DNA of 33,293 bases, from contig JBBDNI010000012.1 of NCBI GenBank assembly GCA_040877645.1, forward strand, positions 1 to 33,293. The letters run 5' to 3'. This DNA is from Chloroflexota bacterium (GTDB lineage: Bacteria > Chloroflexota > Limnocylindria > QHBO01). The translations under genes and the position numbers were made by a program. Below, one piece after another: positions 1,921 through 33,293 of this stretch (the stretch's first letter is position 1; each line of letters starts with the position of its first letter). The notes beneath the pieces were generated by a model. The model did not search any database. It was not told where the DNA came from and saw only the letters and a program-made list of their open reading frames with translations.

Positions 1921-2532
1921 CTAGGCAGGCCTTCGCGCCCGGTGGCGCAGGATGGCCTCGGCGTGCCGGCGCGCAGTCCCGAGCTCGTCGCGCACCAAGC
2001 CCACGGACAGGCGTCCCTCCACGGCAAGCCGGTCCAGCCGCCGTGTGATCTCGTCCCACGTCTGGCGCGGGTAGTCGATCCGGGGCGCGACCGCGACCAG
2101 GTCCCCAGCCGCGCGCAGCTGGCCGACCAGCGTGACTGGAACTCCGAGCCTGGCGGCCAGCGCGACGACCGGTGGCGGCATGACACCAGCCGCGCGCAGG
2201 GTTGCGAGCATCTCGTCCACGCGCTCGCGCATGATCGGATCGAGGGCCGGCGCAGGCCCCCGCAGCCGGATCCGGTGTCCGCTCCGCAGGAGCGTCCCGC
2301 TCGCGACCATCTCATCCACGATCCGTCGCAGGTCGGCGTCAGTCAGCGTCAGTGGCTTCCGGCCTCGATGCACGGACGCGCGACGCGGCTCCGCGTCGTG
2401 AAGCTCGGCCACCACGGTGTCCACGCGAACGTCCGGACGAAGCGGAGCCCGGCGCCCGGATCGGCGGAGGGCAGCCAGCAGGCGACGCTCGGCGAGCCGC
2501 CGCTGGGCGGGATCGATCGGGCCCTCGCTCAC
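1921..2532 (-). CDS. Stand-alone protein resembling the SelB C-terminal winged-helix domains
   Basis: PPPVVALA...LRAAGDLVAV...LSVGLVRDELGTARRHAEAIL parallels the SelB WH3/WH4 pattern (PP...L..G.LV...FRD.LG.SRKYA..LLE). No GTPase domain. Confidence 0.65.
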   Translation of the reverse strand: MSEGPIDPAQRRLAERRLLAALRRSGRRAPLRPDVRVDTVVAELHDAEPRRASVHRGRKPLTLTDADLRRIVDEMVASGTLLRSGHRIRLRGPAPALDPIMRERVDEMLATLRAAGVMPPPVVALAARLGVPVTLVGQLRAAGDLVAVAPRIDYPRQTWDEITRRLDRLAVEGRLSVGLVRDELGTARRHAEAILRHRARRPA

Positions 2533-2543
2533 GCGGGGTTGGC

Positions 2544-3065
2544 TCAGCCGGCGCTCGGAGTGGGTGGGGCGCCCTCGACCGCGACCCGGATCGCCTGCGC
2601 CTCCTCGTCGGAGAGGGTGTGCGTCGACGCCCCGCCCTCGACCGGCTTGGCGAAGAGGCGCGTGCCGCCCCGGCCGTGCAGGCTGCTGAGCACGACCCCA
2701 TCACGGCGGTCGTCGAGCAGCGCGATGGCGAAGCTCTGGTCCGATCCGGTGTCCTCGAACGGGTTGAAGCGCACCATCCCGACGTGCTGCAGGCTGCCGC
2801 GCGATCGAACCTCGAGGTACTCGTGCAGCTCGGAGAGCTTCTCGAGCCTGGCGCCGACCTCCACAACGCGGCTGATGTGCGCGTCGAGGAGCTGCTGGAG
2901 CGAGCCGCCCTCCGTGTCGCTGACCAGGGATCGGTACGCGCTGGTCGCCCGTCGCAGACGGGTCGCCTGCACTACCGCCACCACCAGCAGGCCGGTGACG
3001 ACAACCGCGATGACGCCCACGACGAGCGCCAGGTTGTCCACGAGGGTGCGGTTCAGGTCGGGCAC
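2544..3065 (-). CDS. DUF4446 family protein (N-terminal TM, coiled coil)
   Basis: Motif VGMVRFNPFEDTGSDQSFAIALLD...G.VLSSLHGR..TRLFAKPV..G.S...LS.EE. Start taken as GTG 3065 downstream of TATGAT (3081-3076); ATG 3080 is an alternative. Confidence 0.85.
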   Translation of the reverse strand: MPDLNRTLVDNLALVVGVIAVVVTGLLVVAVVQATRLRRATSAYRSLVSDTEGGSLQQLLDAHISRVVEVGARLEKLSELHEYLEVRSRGSLQHVGMVRFNPFEDTGSDQSFAIALLDDRRDGVVLSSLHGRGGTRLFAKPVEGGASTHTLSDEEAQAIRVAVEGAPPTPSAG

Positions 3066-3146
3066 GGGCGCTGGTATCATACCGCCCCCATTCGGCTTCC
3101 CAGCCGATCGGAGCATGCCGGCAGAGCCGGCGCAGCAGGAGGACCG

Positions 3147-3515
3147 ATGGCTCGACGAGGCGGCAAGGCGGCCAATCGCCGCGACCGCCAGCGACGTGCC
3201 CAGCGGCGCGCGCTGCAGCGCCCGGCCCCGACTCACCGCCCGGTCAGCGGCACCGTCTCGGAGGCCGTCGATGCCGTCGCCGAGCAGCGCGCCGCGGCTG
3301 CGCCGGTGGCCCCCGCCACCCAGCTGACCCGGGGCGCTCGCTCCGACCCCCGCTTCGCCGTCGCCGGCCCCTCTCGCCTCGGCGAGCGCGCCGCGGCCGA
3401 CTACCACTACGTGCGCAGCGACCTTCGCAACATCGCCGTCCTGGTCGCGATCATGGCCGTCCTGCTCGGTGCCGCAGTGGTCGCCTTCGGCGCCCTGGGG
3501 ATCGGTCCGAGCTAG
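3147..3515 (+). CDS. Small protein (122 aa) with Arg-rich N-terminus and C-terminal TM helix
   Basis: SD AGGAGG precedes ATG 3147. Sequence MARRGGKAANRRDRQRRAQRR...DYHYVRSDLRNIAVLVAIMAVLLGAAVVAFG. Confidence 0.8.
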   Translation: MARRGGKAANRRDRQRRAQRRALQRPAPTHRPVSGTVSEAVDAVAEQRAAAAPVAPATQLTRGARSDPRFAVAGPSRLGERAAADYHYVRSDLRNIAVLVAIMAVLLGAAVVAFGALGIGPS

Positions 3516-3532
3516 AAACCGGCGACGTTGCC

Positions 3533-3570
3533 AAAAAACGTTGACCGGCGGGACGCGTCCGCACTAGACT
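3533..3570 (+). promoter_or_regulatory. Sigma70-type promoter for the candidate large ncRNA
   Basis: A6 tract, TTGACC 3541-3546, 18-bp spacer, TAGACT 3565-3570. Confidence 0.75.
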
Positions 3571-3576
3571 CCGAGA

Positions 3577-4119
3577 TGCCGCTCCCACGACCCGCAAGGC
3601 CGTAATCTGGGGCGGACCGAAAGGAGATCCGCGGTGGCGATTCTGTCGCGACCCCGAGTCTCCGCCGGGTGCAGGTAACGTAGGAGACGGGGATAAGCTC
3701 CCGCCCCAAAGCGCGGCAGGCACACTGCCTCCGCCCGAGCGAACGCGAGAGAGTCAAAAGCCCAATCGGCAGTTCACTCGGGATCGTTACGGAGGAAAGG
3801 GTCAGCGGCGTCGAGGCAACGATCGGGACCGGCCGCACCACCTTCGGGTGATGTCAGCAATCCGATCGGGCCGTCCTACGGCTCCAGGTTCAGTGGCGTG
3901 GTAGCCACTGGGCGGCTCTGCAGACGAGGAGCCGCGAGAACCAGCTTGACCGGCACTGGGTGCCAGAAGGTCCGCACTGCTTACGCGGGCCCGAGGCCTT
4001 CAGCACCCGCAGTCAGGCGAGGCGTCCGAGGTTCGTTCGTCGCCGCGGGGTAATACCTAACGCTGATGAGCGAGTCGAGAGGGTCTGAGGTCCATGCGAG
4101 AAAGGGACCTCAGGCCCTC
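3577..4119 (+). ncRNA. Candidate large structured non-coding RNA of unrecognised family
   Basis: No credible ORF. Own promoter. Multiple nested helices, CC-GCAA-GG, CC-GAAA-GG and CACC-UUCG-GGUG loops, possible 5'/3' end pairing and a terminal hairpin. Confidence 0.7.
4079..4119 (+). terminator. 15-bp hairpin, probable terminator or 3' stabilising stem
   Basis: GAGGGTCTGAGGTCC (4079-4093) pairs with GGACCTCAGGCCCTC (4105-4119), with one U-G wobble on the + strand. No clear U tract follows. Confidence 0.6.
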
Positions 4120-4158
4120 ACGTCGTTCCTGGGCCACCGCCCCCATGACCTCGGTGCC

Positions 4159-4341
4159 TGCCATATTCACGCCCCATGAGCGCGGAGCGCACGCGCCTGT
4201 CCCCGGGGTGGCCATCTGCCCACCTCGTGTGAATGTGGCAGGGAAAGGCGCCTCGTCGCTGCCGTCTGCCCACATGGTGTGAATCTGGCAGCAAACGCAG
4301 CGCCTCACGCGGCATGGCGCTCATGGGGCGTGAATTTGACG
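4159..4341. repeat. ~182-bp MITE/REP-like element, copy 1
   Basis: Perfect 19-bp inverted repeat at 4165-4183 and 4317-4335. Internal 31-bp direct repeats at 4211-4241 and 4261-4291 (4 mismatches). Core motif GTGAATnTGGCA. Confidence 0.75.
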
Positions 4342-4376
4342 CTTGACCGTCGGCCGGGAGGCCCTGATCGTCCCGG

Positions 4377-4940
4377 CTACGCCGTCGCGGGACCGATGCG
4401 GAAGCTGAGCGCCGTCCGTGGACCGAACTCGGAGACCTCCAGCTTCTCGAGCGGCGTCTCCGCCAGCACGCCATCTTCGAAGAGGCGAAGGCCGCCTCCG
4501 AGGAGCACCGGCATGACGTCGATCGCGAGCTCGTCGACCAGGCCGGCGGCGAGGAACTGGCGGACGATGCTCGCACCGCCGATGACCAGCACATCGCGCT
4601 CGCCGGCCGCGTCCCGTGCCTGGCGCACGGCGGACTCGACGCCATCGGTCACGAAGGTGAATGTCAGGCGCTCGTCCTGCTTCGGCGCGACGGCCGGTGG
4701 ACGGTGGGTGACCACGAAGATCGGCACCTGGAACTCGTAGTTGCCGACGTACGCATCAGGGTCGCCCATCTCGAAGGCGCGGCGGCCCATGAGCACCGCG
4801 CCGGTCTGCGCGATATCGCGGGCCAGTGACTCGGAATCCGGGAGCGAGGGAAGGTCGGGGAAGAGCGCCTGAACGCTCCCCTGCCGATCGTTGACGAACC
4901 CGTCGAGCGACATCGTCATCCCGGCGACGACCTTCGTCAC
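4377..4940 (-). CDS. Dihydrofolate reductase / RibD C-terminal family protein
   Basis: MSLDGFV, GAVLMGRR.F, V.GG, AGLVDEL.I...PVLLGGG.RLF. SD GAGGAGG. Confidence 0.9.
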   Translation of the reverse strand: MTKVVAGMTMSLDGFVNDRQGSVQALFPDLPSLPDSESLARDIAQTGAVLMGRRAFEMGDPDAYVGNYEFQVPIFVVTHRPPAVAPKQDERLTFTFVTDGVESAVRQARDAAGERDVLVIGGASIVRQFLAAGLVDELAIDVMPVLLGGGLRLFEDGVLAETPLEKLEVSEFGPRTALSFRIGPATA

Positions 4941-4956
4941 GCTTGCACCTCCTCAG

Positions 4957-6318
4957 CTACGTGTCGCCACCGCCCTTGCGAGCCTGCTTGGATTCGAGCC
5001 GCTGTCGGCGCAGCCGTTGAAGCCGCTCGCCGATCTTGATCTCGAGGCCCTGATCGGATGGCTCGTAGAAGACGCGCCCGGCCAGCGCATCGGGCAGGTA
5101 CTGCTGGTCGACGTCGGCGTCGTCGAAGTCGTGGGGATAGAGGTAGCCTTTGCCATAGCCGTGCTCCCTGGCCAACCGGCGGTGCGACGACGGGCGCAGG
5201 TGCAGCGGGACCGGCAGCCGGCCGCGCTCCTCCACCTCGGCCAGGGCCGCGAAGTAGGCCGATCCCGCTCGGTTCGACTTTGGCGCGCTGGCGACGTAGG
5301 CGGCAGCCTGGGCCAGGGCGTACTGCGCTTCGGGCAGGCCGATCATCTCCACCGCCTGCATGGCCGCCACCGCGACCTGCAGCGCCCGCGGGTCGGCGTT
5401 GCCCACGTCCTCGCTGGCGGCGATCACGATCCGTCGCGCGATGAAGGTCGGGTCCTCCCCCGCCGCCACCATGCTGGCGCACCAGTACAGCGCCGCGTCC
5501 GGATCGTTCCCCCGCATCGACTTGATGAAGGCCGAGGCCGCCTCGTAATGCTGGTCGCCGACCCGGTCGTATGCGAGCAGGCGCTGCTGCGCCGCCTCGG
5601 CGATCGCCTCGCGGCTGAGCTCAGCTCCCTCCCCCACCACCGAGGCAGCCGCCTCCAGGATGTTCAACGCCTGCCGCGCGTCGCCGCCCGATAGCTCGAG
5701 CAGAGCGCTCATCGCCTCCTCGCCGAGCGCCACCCGGCCGGCGAGGCCCCGCTCATCGGCGATGGCGCGGACCACGATCTGGCGCACCTCGTCGGGGCCC
5801 AGCGGCTCCAGGCGATACACCCGCAGCCGCGACAGGAGCGGCGAGTTGATCTCGTAGTACGGGTTCTCGGTGGTCGCCCCGATCAGGACGATGGTGCCGT
5901 CCTCGACGTGCGGCAGCAGGGCATCCTGCTGGCTCTTGTTGAATCGGTGGATCTCGTCGATGAAGACCACGGTCATCGCCCCGCCAGCCCGCGCCGCGCC
6001 AGCATCGGCGAACAGCTTGCGCAGATCAGCCACCCCGCTGGTAACCGCGCTGATCTGGTGCCAGGCTCCGCCGGCCCGTTCGGCCAACAGCCGCGCGAGG
6101 GTCGTCTTGCCGGATCCCGGCGGACCCCATAGCAGGATGCTCGGCAGGTAGCCGGGCTGGACCACTCTGGTCAGCGCGCCGTTGGGGCCGGCCAGATGAT
6201 CCTGGCCGACGAAGTCCTCATCGGTCCGAGGCCGCATGCGAGCGGCCAGGGGTGCGGATGGCCCCCCATCACCGAAAGCGAACATCGGTTCAGACGGAGA
6301 ATCGGCACGCTTCGGCAC
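4957..6318 (-). CDS. rarA: Replication-associated recombination protein A (RarA/MgsA AAA+ ATPase)
   Basis: PLAARMRP, GPPGSGKTT, FIDEIHRFNKSQQDALLP, GATTENP, SAFIKSMRG, ASEDVGNADP, Y.YPHD. Confidence 0.95.
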   Translation of the reverse strand: MPKRADSPSEPMFAFGDGGPSAPLAARMRPRTDEDFVGQDHLAGPNGALTRVVQPGYLPSILLWGPPGSGKTTLARLLAERAGGAWHQISAVTSGVADLRKLFADAGAARAGGAMTVVFIDEIHRFNKSQQDALLPHVEDGTIVLIGATTENPYYEINSPLLSRLRVYRLEPLGPDEVRQIVVRAIADERGLAGRVALGEEAMSALLELSGGDARQALNILEAAASVVGEGAELSREAIAEAAQQRLLAYDRVGDQHYEAASAFIKSMRGNDPDAALYWCASMVAAGEDPTFIARRIVIAASEDVGNADPRALQVAVAAMQAVEMIGLPEAQYALAQAAAYVASAPKSNRAGSAYFAALAEVEERGRLPVPLHLRPSSHRRLAREHGYGKGYLYPHDFDDADVDQQYLPDALAGRVFYEPSDQGLEIKIGERLQRLRRQRLESKQARKGGGDT

Positions 6319-27924: not shown

Positions 27925-27929
27925 GTCCA

Positions 27930-28112
27930 TGCCAAATTCACACAAGGTGAGCGCCGAAGCGCGTCTTCCTGCGTCCATTCAGCCAAATGCACACGGGCCG
28001 TGAATTTCGGTATGCAGGGGACCGAATTTGCAGCCACATTCACACGGCGTGGGCATCTGTCACACGCTGCCCGACTCTTGCGCCCACGTGCTCACTCGGT
28101 GTGAATCTGGCA
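27930..28112. repeat. ~183-bp MITE/REP-like element, copy 2 (opposite orientation to copy 1)
   Basis: GCCAnATnCACAC motifs at 27931, 27982 and 28033 (51-bp period), with an inverted copy GTGTGAATCTGGCA at 28099-28112. Confidence 0.75.
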
Positions 28113-28152
28113 CGACATCCGTCTCCGCGGGCGGAACGCTACCATCGGGCCA

Positions 28153-30728: not shown

Positions 30729-30812
30729 TGGTGGGCGAGGCGAGATTCGAACTCGCACGTCTTGCGACACCGGCTCCTAAAGCCGGCGCGTCTGCCGTTC
30801 CGCCACTCGCCC
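30729..30812 (-). tRNA. tRNA-Leu(TAG)
   Basis: Acceptor stem GGGCGAG/CTCGCCC-ACCA, anticodon arm CCGGC-TTTAGGA-GCCGG, long variable arm, GTTCGAATC. Confidence 0.97.
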
Positions 30813-33240: not shown

Positions 33241-33293
33241 GGGCGGCTAGCTCAACGGCAGAGCAAGTGACTCTTAATCACTAGGTTCAGGGT
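33241..33293 (+). tRNA. tRNA-Lys(CTT), 3' truncated by the window edge
   Basis: GGGCGGC-TA-GCTC...GAGC D arm and anticodon arm AGTGA-CTCTTAA-TCACT. Confidence 0.93.

Follow-up and report, generated by a model that had tools for sequence, protein, structure and literature searches.

A large structured non-coding RNA, very probably of an undescribed family, in Chloroflexota

The window, a 33,293-nt stretch of Chloroflexota DNA (contig JBBDNI010000012.1 of assembly GCA_040877645.1), contains at about 3579-4132 of the + strand a stand-alone gene for a non-coding RNA of ~550 nt, which has its own conserved sigma-70-type promoter. The analysis shows a real gene that does not encode protein, is under structural constraint, occurs in single copy, can be dispensed with at the genus level and is represented in RNA libraries; its product is very probably a genuine structured non-coding RNA (ncRNA) of an undescribed family. 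Comparison of homologues predicts a fold of about twelve helices that two pseudoknots hold together. An earlier note on this DNA, made from the sequence, had proposed a large structured RNA with its own transcription, perhaps from a class not yet described, and the tests that it had named beforehand as able to refute this proposal failed to do so. The carriers form a group of uncultured bacteria from soil and sediment, and with this RNA a new class of large RNAs in bacteria may have come to light.

Promoter, extent and non-coding character

The promoter (3541-3570, + strand) consists of the -35 hexamer TTGACC at 3541-3546, an 18-nt spacer and the -10 hexamer TAGACT at 3565-3570. A scan for sigma-70-like sites over 3000-5000 returned one promoter-like site, compared with 0.1 expected from shuffles, and in the homologue alignments the -10 hexamer (TAGACT or TAGAYT) is kept across genera and the -35 hexamer is mostly kept; the promoter read by eye in the earlier note is thus unique in 3000-5000 and conserved in homologues. 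From the promoter spacing, transcription would start near 3577-3579. Directly 5' of the -35 hexamer lies an A-rich tract (3533-3539, + strand) that may serve as an UP element, and a tract of the AAAA type is kept in most homologues.

The placement of the RNA gene (3579-4132, + strand) follows from the limits of conservation, non-coding substitutions, RNA-library contigs covering 3579-4093 and conserved G-U pairs. In the homologue alignments, conservation begins at the -35 hexamer and stops just past 4130. A size of ~500-540 nt with an end at 4119 had been given before, and this turned out to be slightly short: the real RNA measures ~550 nt and extends to ~4126-4132, because 4120-4126 pairs with 4019-4025.

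That the stretch holds no credible open reading frame (ORF), as also claimed earlier, agrees with the presence of short ORFs only and with the lack of a codon-type substitution pattern. The + strand ORFs inside the RNA encode only 51 and 42 aa, and the - strand ORFs of 53-109 aa are ordinary at this G+C content. In comparison with six close relatives, mismatches over 3579-4130 amounted to 136/123/153 over the three phases, and 74 of the 79 insertions and deletions (indels) in the RNA were of 1 nt. The same comparison for the upstream ORF gave 194/153/326 by phase, with indels that were mostly multiples of 3. The absence of codon-type periodicity together with the 1-nt indels demonstrates that the RNA is not coding.

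The + strand of 3570-4125 folds with -273.2 kcal/mol (z = -5.76, with 0/100 shuffles as good), and the - strand of the same stretch has z = -3.56. The RNA was assigned to the + strand because many conserved G-U pairs (for example GU:28, UG:27, UG:27 and UG:25 of 29 sequences) would read A-C on the opposite strand. The promoter is oriented on the same strand as this G-U evidence.

Conserved secondary structure

Two sets of homologues were used for the structure, namely the tool-made alignment A6 of 29 sequences, with unpublished genomes left out, and a set of 50 sequences with members below 97% identity, which was the source of the curated structure. On A6, the RNAalifold consensus with one pseudoknot comprised 165 pairs, with 86.1% of the cells paired and 94 pairs changed on both sides, compared with 34-46% and 40-46 double-change pairs in slid controls. 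The curated full-length structure comprised 158 pairs with 83.1% paired and 97 double-change pairs; its slid controls gave 34-46% and 44-55, and 0/500 shuffles reached the observed values. In the core of 36 pairs (alignment A7, 29 sequences), 96.1% were paired with 21 double-change pairs versus 30-48% and 3-6 in slid controls, a comparison in which A7 leans towards the core structure because it was fitted to the model. The conservation check named in the earlier note accordingly returned homologues with many compensatory changes. The best-supported elements are P3, P5, P6, P7, P8, the base of P9 (3944-3950/4012-4018) and P10-P12 of the 3' domain, and many unpaired junction nucleotides are invariant in the homologue alignments. 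All elements described below are on the + strand.

The two predicted pseudoknots each join an upstream strand to the loop of a downstream hairpin. The 5' strand of PK1, UAGG at 3681-3684, is embedded in the highly conserved junction 3664-3685 and would pair with CCUA 3875-3878 in the loop of hairpin P6 (3869-3883). It was paired in 99.1% of cells in the 29 sequences and 99% in the 50, where pair 3682-3877 is AU:33 and GC:16. The loop strand of PK1 is preceded by a single nucleotide and followed by none, a geometry that appears to fit an H-type pseudoknot. Hairpin P6 itself was 99.3% paired, and its pair 3870-3882 is GC:15, AU:12, GU:2 in the 29 sequences and GC:26, AU:19, GU:5 in the 50. RNAalifold had paired 3665-3684 with 3875-3888 and GGC 3815-3817 with GCC 3870-3872; the local P6 with a 4-bp pseudoknot was preferred, because A at 3870 (19/50) breaks the long-range pair while 3870-3882 covaries. 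The 5' strand of PK2, UCGU at 3784-3787 in the internal loop of P4, has its partner ACGA 3924-3927 in the loop of hairpin P8 (3912-3935; helix 97% paired). PK2 was likewise 99.1% paired in the 29 sequences (99% in the 50), all 4/4 pairs change on both sides, and three versions occur, UCGU/ACGA, UCAC/GUGA and UGAC/GUCA.

At the 5' end, a genus-variable hairpin domain (3579-3615) is tentatively drawn, here with CCGCUCC 3579-3585 paired to GGGGCGG 3609-3615 around an inner GCAA-capped stem. Its pairs are kept in seven close relatives, with both-side changes at three inner pairs, and across the 29 sequences 80% of the cells are paired in a poor alignment. Hairpin P2 (3623-3663) follows, formed by GGAGAUCC 3623-3630 and GAGUCUCC 3656-3663 with an inner stem at 3638-3648; it is 81% paired with 4 double-change pairs in the 50 sequences and 74% with 6/8 in the 29. 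Hairpin P3 (3686-3705) has the conserved loop (G)AUAAGC(U), 93.1% paired cells and 3/6 pairs changed on both sides. P4 (3711-3811) is a long irregular arm made of 3711-3733/3790-3811 (19 pairs, 85% paired, 11 double-change in the 50 sequences) and 3734-3748/3766-3782 (15 pairs, 83%, 10 double-change). In the P5 arm (3820-3868), the outer helix of CGAUCGGG 3820-3827 and UCCGAUCG 3861-3868 surrounds a UUCG-capped stem at 3835-3854, with 98.3% paired and 4/8 double-change in the outer helix and 87.1% and 7/8 in the inner one (29 sequences).

Hairpin P7 (3890-3911), UCAGUGG/CCACUGG, is 99.5% paired with 5/7 double-change pairs in the 29 sequences. The variable arm P9 (3944-4018) is built on the base helix GCUUGAC 3944-3950/GUCAGGC 4012-4018, which is 98% paired with several covarying pairs in the 50 sequences, and continues into a variable stem with an apical GCUUA/GCUUG. 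When each homologue was folded alone, 3950-4012 gave a single long hairpin with this GCUUA/GCUUG apex in 29/29. The 3' domain (4019-4126) contains a closing helix 4019-4025/4120-4126, P11 4030-4041/4065-4076 and a terminal hairpin 4079-4088/4110-4119, which are 91%, 93% and 96% paired in the 50 sequences (90.4% and 92.2% for the first two in the 29). An end-to-end helix may also form between 3665-3669 and 4128-4132, which are 87% paired in the 50 sequences, where no pair changes on both sides.

About half of the helices that the earlier note had read by eye were recovered, and its two long-range closing helices were not. The helices at 3820-3826/3862-3868, 3891-3910 and 3912-3935 reappeared with 97-99.5% of cells paired in the 29 sequences. 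The CCCGAG arm stands at 3734-3738/3778-3782 (88%), and CCUCCG/CGGAGG (3728-3733/3790-3795) was borne out in part only, at 68% column by column within the arm 3711-3811. The arm at 3950-4012 is a hairpin in every homologue, as said, and its GGGUGC/GCACCC pairing as originally written is kept in 3/29. In UCAGCG 3802-3807/CGCUGA 4061-4066, the outer two pairs are kept in 24 and 27 of 29 sequences and the inner four in 16, 13, 8 and 3, so this helix was abandoned. The same applied to UGGGGCGG/CCGCCCCA (3608-3615/3701-3708), with at least 7/8 pairs kept in 8/29 sequences, to GUCUCC 3658-3663/GGAGAC 3683-3688 (67%), each strand of which has a better partner, and to the end-joining CGCUC 3580-3584/GAGCG 4068-4072, kept in 11/29.

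The junctions and pseudoknots could in principle build the active site of a ribozyme, which perhaps makes its own 3' end. The two pseudoknots and the many invariant unpaired junction nucleotides would suit this idea, and as no intrinsic terminator follows the gene, the 3' end might arise by processing. However, no known ribozyme family matches, the CUGAUGA-like string at 4062-4068 is not kept (other genera have CCGAUGG or CCGAUAG), and no result indicates a substrate or a cleavage site; a catalytic role is therefore considered improbable.

Distribution among genomes and metagenomes

Homologues of the structured RNA were searched for in sets of genomes, where the best 19 first-look candidates per genome were scored and stricter filters were used above 40 genomes; as many genomes are incomplete, not found does not equal absent. 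By blastn, the RNA was detected in 7/41 relatives (the genome of the window, G000, included) with 83-100% identity and one copy each. Model R1, a 162-nt core, matched 11/29 genomes of the genus, and model R2 matched 37/151 family genomes at E <= 0.01, four of them weakly. R3, a covariance model built on the 29 sequences, matched 33/151 family genomes, all at 99 bits or above and in one copy each, with nothing else at E <= 0.001. These carriers span 5/24 genera: g1 (10/28 plus G000), g17 (3/4), g22 (1/1), g25 (12/18) and g27 (6/8). R3 found no match in g14 (0/38), g32 (0/14), g24 (0/8), g26 (0/6) or g15 (0/6). Three of the positives (G016, G048 and G134) are unpublished genomes, and 30/148 remain without them. 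The weak R2 matches of 22-27 bits, in G063, G068, G183, G046 and G098, were not retained: the first three, which were inspected, look like coding DNA without promoter or 3' tail, and all five disappeared with R3.

Beyond the family, the sole solid match in a class-wide sample of 151 genomes was in G200 from the sister family (77.5 bits), and when 151 genomes from across the phylum were sampled, the matches were limited to members of the family and one of 25.1 bits (G287), which was treated as chance. In metagenomes, a degenerate pattern matched 53 contigs, of which R3 confirmed 34 at 117-172 bits. The same pattern gave 0 matches in 2.9 million viral contigs, and blastn gave 0 matches in 50,697 phage records and 72,556 plasmids. 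As far as searched, the family is confined to five genera of one family-level clade of Chloroflexota and one sister-family genome, and this clade probably belongs to the class Limnocylindria. The RNA tree groups the sequences by genus.

Presence in RNA libraries

The RNA is present in RNA libraries of four studies. In total, 24 sequencing runs contained 19-44% of the sampled words, and four metatranscriptomic runs, one from each of four studies, were aligned to 3200-4500 at 85% likeness; the other 20 do not count as evidence for expression or habitat. Run X1 supplied 154 contig pieces, 44 of them at >=99% identity, with examples at 3579-3703 and 3940-4041; the first begins at 3579, but this does not prove that transcription starts there, and the level cannot be read from summed depths. 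Run X2 supplied 25 pieces, run X3 one contig over 3602-4069 and run X4 one contig over 3645-4093. On either side, over 3200-3550 and 4124-4500, the four runs gave hardly any cover or none, a lack that is not itself evidence. Regarding the transcript check named in the earlier note, coverage of the RNA by library contigs from four studies was therefore obtained, and strand, ends and level are beyond what contigs can show.

Comparison with described RNA families

Scanning the whole window with Rfam 15 (4227 models) at gathering thresholds returned only two tRNAs, both elsewhere in the window. At E <= 10 over 3400-4500, three chance-level matches of 15.6-17.2 bits appeared versus cut-offs of 47-104, and on eight divergent homologue loci (25,147 nt) at E <= 5, 0/6 matches fell on the RNA. 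The models RF00010, RF00023, RF00013, ROOL, GOLLD and OLE gave no match on the RNA in these Rfam 15 scans. The Rfam check thus left the RNA and its eight divergent homologues without a match. The type A RNase P RNA (RF00010) was found elsewhere in 4/5 genus genomes (G022, G013, G005 and G008; 150-159 bits), of which G022 and G013 also carry the new RNA; it was not found in the genome of the window, which is 72.6% complete. The tmRNA (RF00023) was found elsewhere in 5/5 genomes, the copy of this genome being on contig C32 (127.9 bits). The new RNA is not a housekeeping RNA such as RNase P or tmRNA, because canonical copies are encoded elsewhere in the carrier genomes.

An abundant stationary-phase RNA that sequesters RNA polymerase, in the manner of 6S or Ms1 RNA, deserves separate consideration. 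The 6S model (RF00013) had a hit in 0/5 genus genomes, the promoter of the new RNA is strong and conserved, and the RNA occurs in RNA libraries from sediments, all of which would fit. However, the silence of RF00013 says little because the same model detects 6S in only 5/14 control genomes, the predicted fold is multi-branched with pseudoknots and not one long helix with a central bubble, and the failure to find the RNA in 118/151 family genomes, with an empty site in close relatives, would be odd for a general polymerase regulator. A 6S-like role is thus regarded as unlikely.

In the literature searched on large or structured RNAs of Chloroflexi/Chloroflexota, nothing on the new RNA was found, and no report linking Limnocylindria with noncoding RNA was found either. 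The accessible part of the preprint 10.64898/2026.10.21.760802 does not mention it. Every test of membership in a described family that could be run came out negative.

Genomic context and a variable site

Upstream of the RNA gene lies a + strand ORF that ends at 3515 and matches no Pfam family; downstream, RibD_C (4377-4940) and MgsA (4957-6318) are encoded on the - strand. According to crude ORF calling in 21 loci of +-5 kb, neighbours are common only within sub-clades, and no protein family beside the RNA is common to genera. Pfam placed 20 neighbours in unrelated families, including luciferase-like monooxygenase, AhpC/TSA, DsbD, glyoxalase, adenylate cyclase and LytR, and further amino-acid permease, DUF2461, a deaminase and MFS.

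These neighbours bear on whether the RNA acts in cis, as a leader, a riboswitch-like 5' untranslated region (UTR) or a long 3' UTR of a neighbour. In some clades a co-oriented gene indeed lies 55-145 nt downstream (glyoxalase-family in g27, luciferase-like in G041). However, the downstream genes differ among genera and are on the opposite strand in this window, the RNA ends in a closed 3' domain, and the promoter is kept even where the upstream gene is a tRNA; a cis-acting role is close to excluded. Action of the ncRNA in trans is instead favoured, because the flanking genes differ among genera, the neighbours are unrelated and the downstream genes here are on the opposite strand. More broadly, a cis regulator, an antisense RNA or an mRNA is unlikely.

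The gap 3516-4956, from the upstream ORF to mgsA, is a variable spot within the genus. In the RNA-less genomes G005 and G001, the upstream-ORF homologue and mgsA face each other ~50 nt apart; in RNA-less G008 the gap holds one reverse-strand ORF and in G017 a forward-strand ORF (judged by eye). In the genome of the window and its nearest relatives, it holds the RNA gene with or without extra genes. With filters off, R2 gave no match above 9.2 bits in the RNA-less syntenic sites. The filled and empty states of the site indicate that the RNA gene is dispensable and situated in a variable spot.

Among 60 homologue loci scanned, a tRNA-Arg was located directly upstream in three (G003, G125 and G100; L022 1173-1248, L033 and L034 1147-1222), with a CCT or TCG anticodon, on the same strand and ending ~50-75 nt upstream of the RNA gene. 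In six further loci of the 60, all of one clade, a tRNA-Gly lies within ~1 kb downstream. Integrase, phage, transposase or other mobile-element, reverse-transcriptase and nuclease genes were not seen among the neighbours scanned with Pfam.

A further possibility is that the RNA travels between genomes as cargo, on a cryptic mobile element or in a prophage, as with ROOL and GOLLD. The patchy distribution (5/24 genera) with one match in another family, the variable intergenic location, which in close relatives is either empty or filled with other cargo, the tRNA-Arg in 3/60 loci and the dispersed repeat element that follows the gene in this window are compatible with it. On the other hand, there were 0 matches in viral contigs, phage records and plasmids, none of the integrase, phage, transposase or reverse-transcriptase genes lay among the neighbours scanned, each genome has one copy, synteny is stable within sub-clades and the RNA tree follows genus. 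Since stable synteny and a genus-wise RNA tree fit mostly vertical descent with losses, transport as mobile cargo seems an improbable account of this chromosomal RNA gene.

The repeat cluster lies right after the RNA gene at 4141-4342, with another at 27929-28113. In the former, a pair of 31-nt direct repeats spaced 50 nt apart is accompanied by an inverted repeat of 22 nt (4162-4183/4317-4338) and three copies of GTGAATNTGGCAG. This sequence occurs 13 times in the genome (<=1 mismatch) versus 0 times for its reverse used as a control. Contigs C2, C12 and C43 have it in groups of two or three (two such groups on C12), and C24 and C62 have one copy each; it resembles a small dispersed element of the MITE or REP type. 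The cluster is not kept beside the RNA in relatives.

With respect to the flanking genes, matches to the upstream ORF in relatives (L152-L158) contain 1-4 in-frame stops and some are split in two, which may reflect frameshifts, a wrong ORF frame (2352-3515 versus the alternative 1942-3327) or gene decay. The best match of MgsA, at 86% identity (L047), is on a contig of a metagenome-assembled genome (MAG) labelled Steroidobacteraceae, and the next are in MAGs labelled Chloroflexi/Chloroflexota and Candidatus Limnocylindrales (78%, 58-60%); the Steroidobacteraceae label probably points to inconsistent binning or labelling of the public entry. Judged by these labels, the organism probably belongs to Limnocylindria. 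Elsewhere, the window carries an 81-nt tRNA with a long variable arm (30732-30812, - strand), the first 52 positions of a second tRNA cut by the window end (33241-33293, + strand), and a long ORF open at the window start (2-1906, + strand) with a weak match to BTAD, the bacterial transcriptional activator domain, of 20.4 bits against a cut-off of 22.1.

Proposed mode of action

The best explanation would be a folded RNA acting in trans as a stable scaffold, which either binds a protein encoded elsewhere or self-assembles, as OLE, ROOL and GOLLD do. PK1 (3681-3684/3875-3878) and PK2 (3784-3787/3924-3927) would tie the helices together. Such a role is suggested because the conservation of junctions and tertiary contacts speaks for a definite shape in three dimensions, because no neighbouring gene is constant, and because the analogues closest in size, complexity and dispensability, ROOL, GOLLD and OLE, are such RNAs (PMC12286853). 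By analogy, a scaffold or self-assembly mechanism is put forward tentatively. The joint proposal of an undescribed structured ncRNA with a scaffold mechanism, graded as a compromise between the two, is moderately probable.

Several observations weigh against this interpretation. The scaffold idea rests on analogy, and a scan for canonical intrinsic terminators found 0 sites. Assembled contigs show neither strand, ends nor level, and DNA may be present in such libraries. Regarding the structure, covariation counts overstate independent events because the sequences fall into few clades, PK1 has one covarying pair only, and the alignment is poor in the 5' domain and in parts of the variable arm (helices 58-77% in the 29 sequences). 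A parsimony count of double changes per tree branch was too noisy to rank pairs, and all-against-all helix scoring was dropped as a ranking method for the same reason; both methods are noisy because many columns change together on few long branches. Finally, the family was not found in 118/151 family genomes, among them 98-99% complete members of the same genus with an empty syntenic site, and it is for this reason not a core housekeeping RNA; some of these absences may be misses, because only top candidates were scored and under stricter filters.

Comparison with known large RNAs

Like type A RNase P RNA and tmRNA, which are abundant RNAs, the new RNA is stand-alone, promoter-driven, pseudoknotted and a few hundred nt long. 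The string GGAGGAAAG at 3791-3799 resembles the CR-I motif of RNase P; the GGAGG string of the new RNA is not kept in other genera. The difference from 6S RNA lies in the architecture, which is one long helix with a central bubble in 6S and multi-branched here.

To our knowledge, few classes of large bacterial ncRNA (>400 nt and of complex tertiary structure) have been described; all of them proved to be ribozymes, cores of ribonucleoproteins or, in recent work, nanostructures made of RNA only. It is conceivable, although doubtful, that the new RNA is the first representative of a class of large ornate chromosomal RNAs in Limnocylindria-like Chloroflexota, which would have no dedicated neighbouring protein, would be an RNA-only assembly of the ROOL/GOLLD type or a ribozyme of a new kind, and would count as one of the stable RNAs that abound in communities of sediments and soils. 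A new large RNA from an uncultured and environmentally widespread Chloroflexota lineage would be a direct target for the determination of structure and function, and the filled/empty-site polymorphism among close relatives provides a natural comparison for function.

OLE has a length of ~600 nt and adjoins its partner gene oapA in Bacillota. The new RNA differs in its host, Chloroflexota, and in that no neighbouring protein family common to genera lies beside it. OLE is described as chromosomal, single-copy and highly structured; it serves as a scaffold with proteins and forms a dimer (PMC12286853); the new RNA is likewise large, chromosomal, single-copy and highly structured.

GOLLD is described as a large ornate RNA of unknown function from environmental sequence, often >800 nt (PMC12286853). 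The new RNA is also a large ornate RNA, and is set apart from GOLLD by the absence of an Rfam match and of a viral context. The genes of ROOL and GOLLD occur in phages and prophages, in many cases close to tRNA islands (PMC12286853), whereas the new RNA was not found in the viral, phage and plasmid collections and has a tRNA directly adjacent in 3/60 loci. The ROOL linker shows little similarity among homologues (PMC12286853), and one arm of the new RNA is similarly variable in sequence; this variable part is a conserved hairpin, in contrast to the disordered linker of ROOL. ROOL is further described as a non-essential RNA of 16S rRNA-like abundance, whose complex fold contains several pseudoknots and for which no protein partner has been identified (PMC12286853). 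The new RNA resembles it in falling in a similar size class, in having two predicted pseudoknots, in being dispensable within the genus and in being present in RNA libraries.

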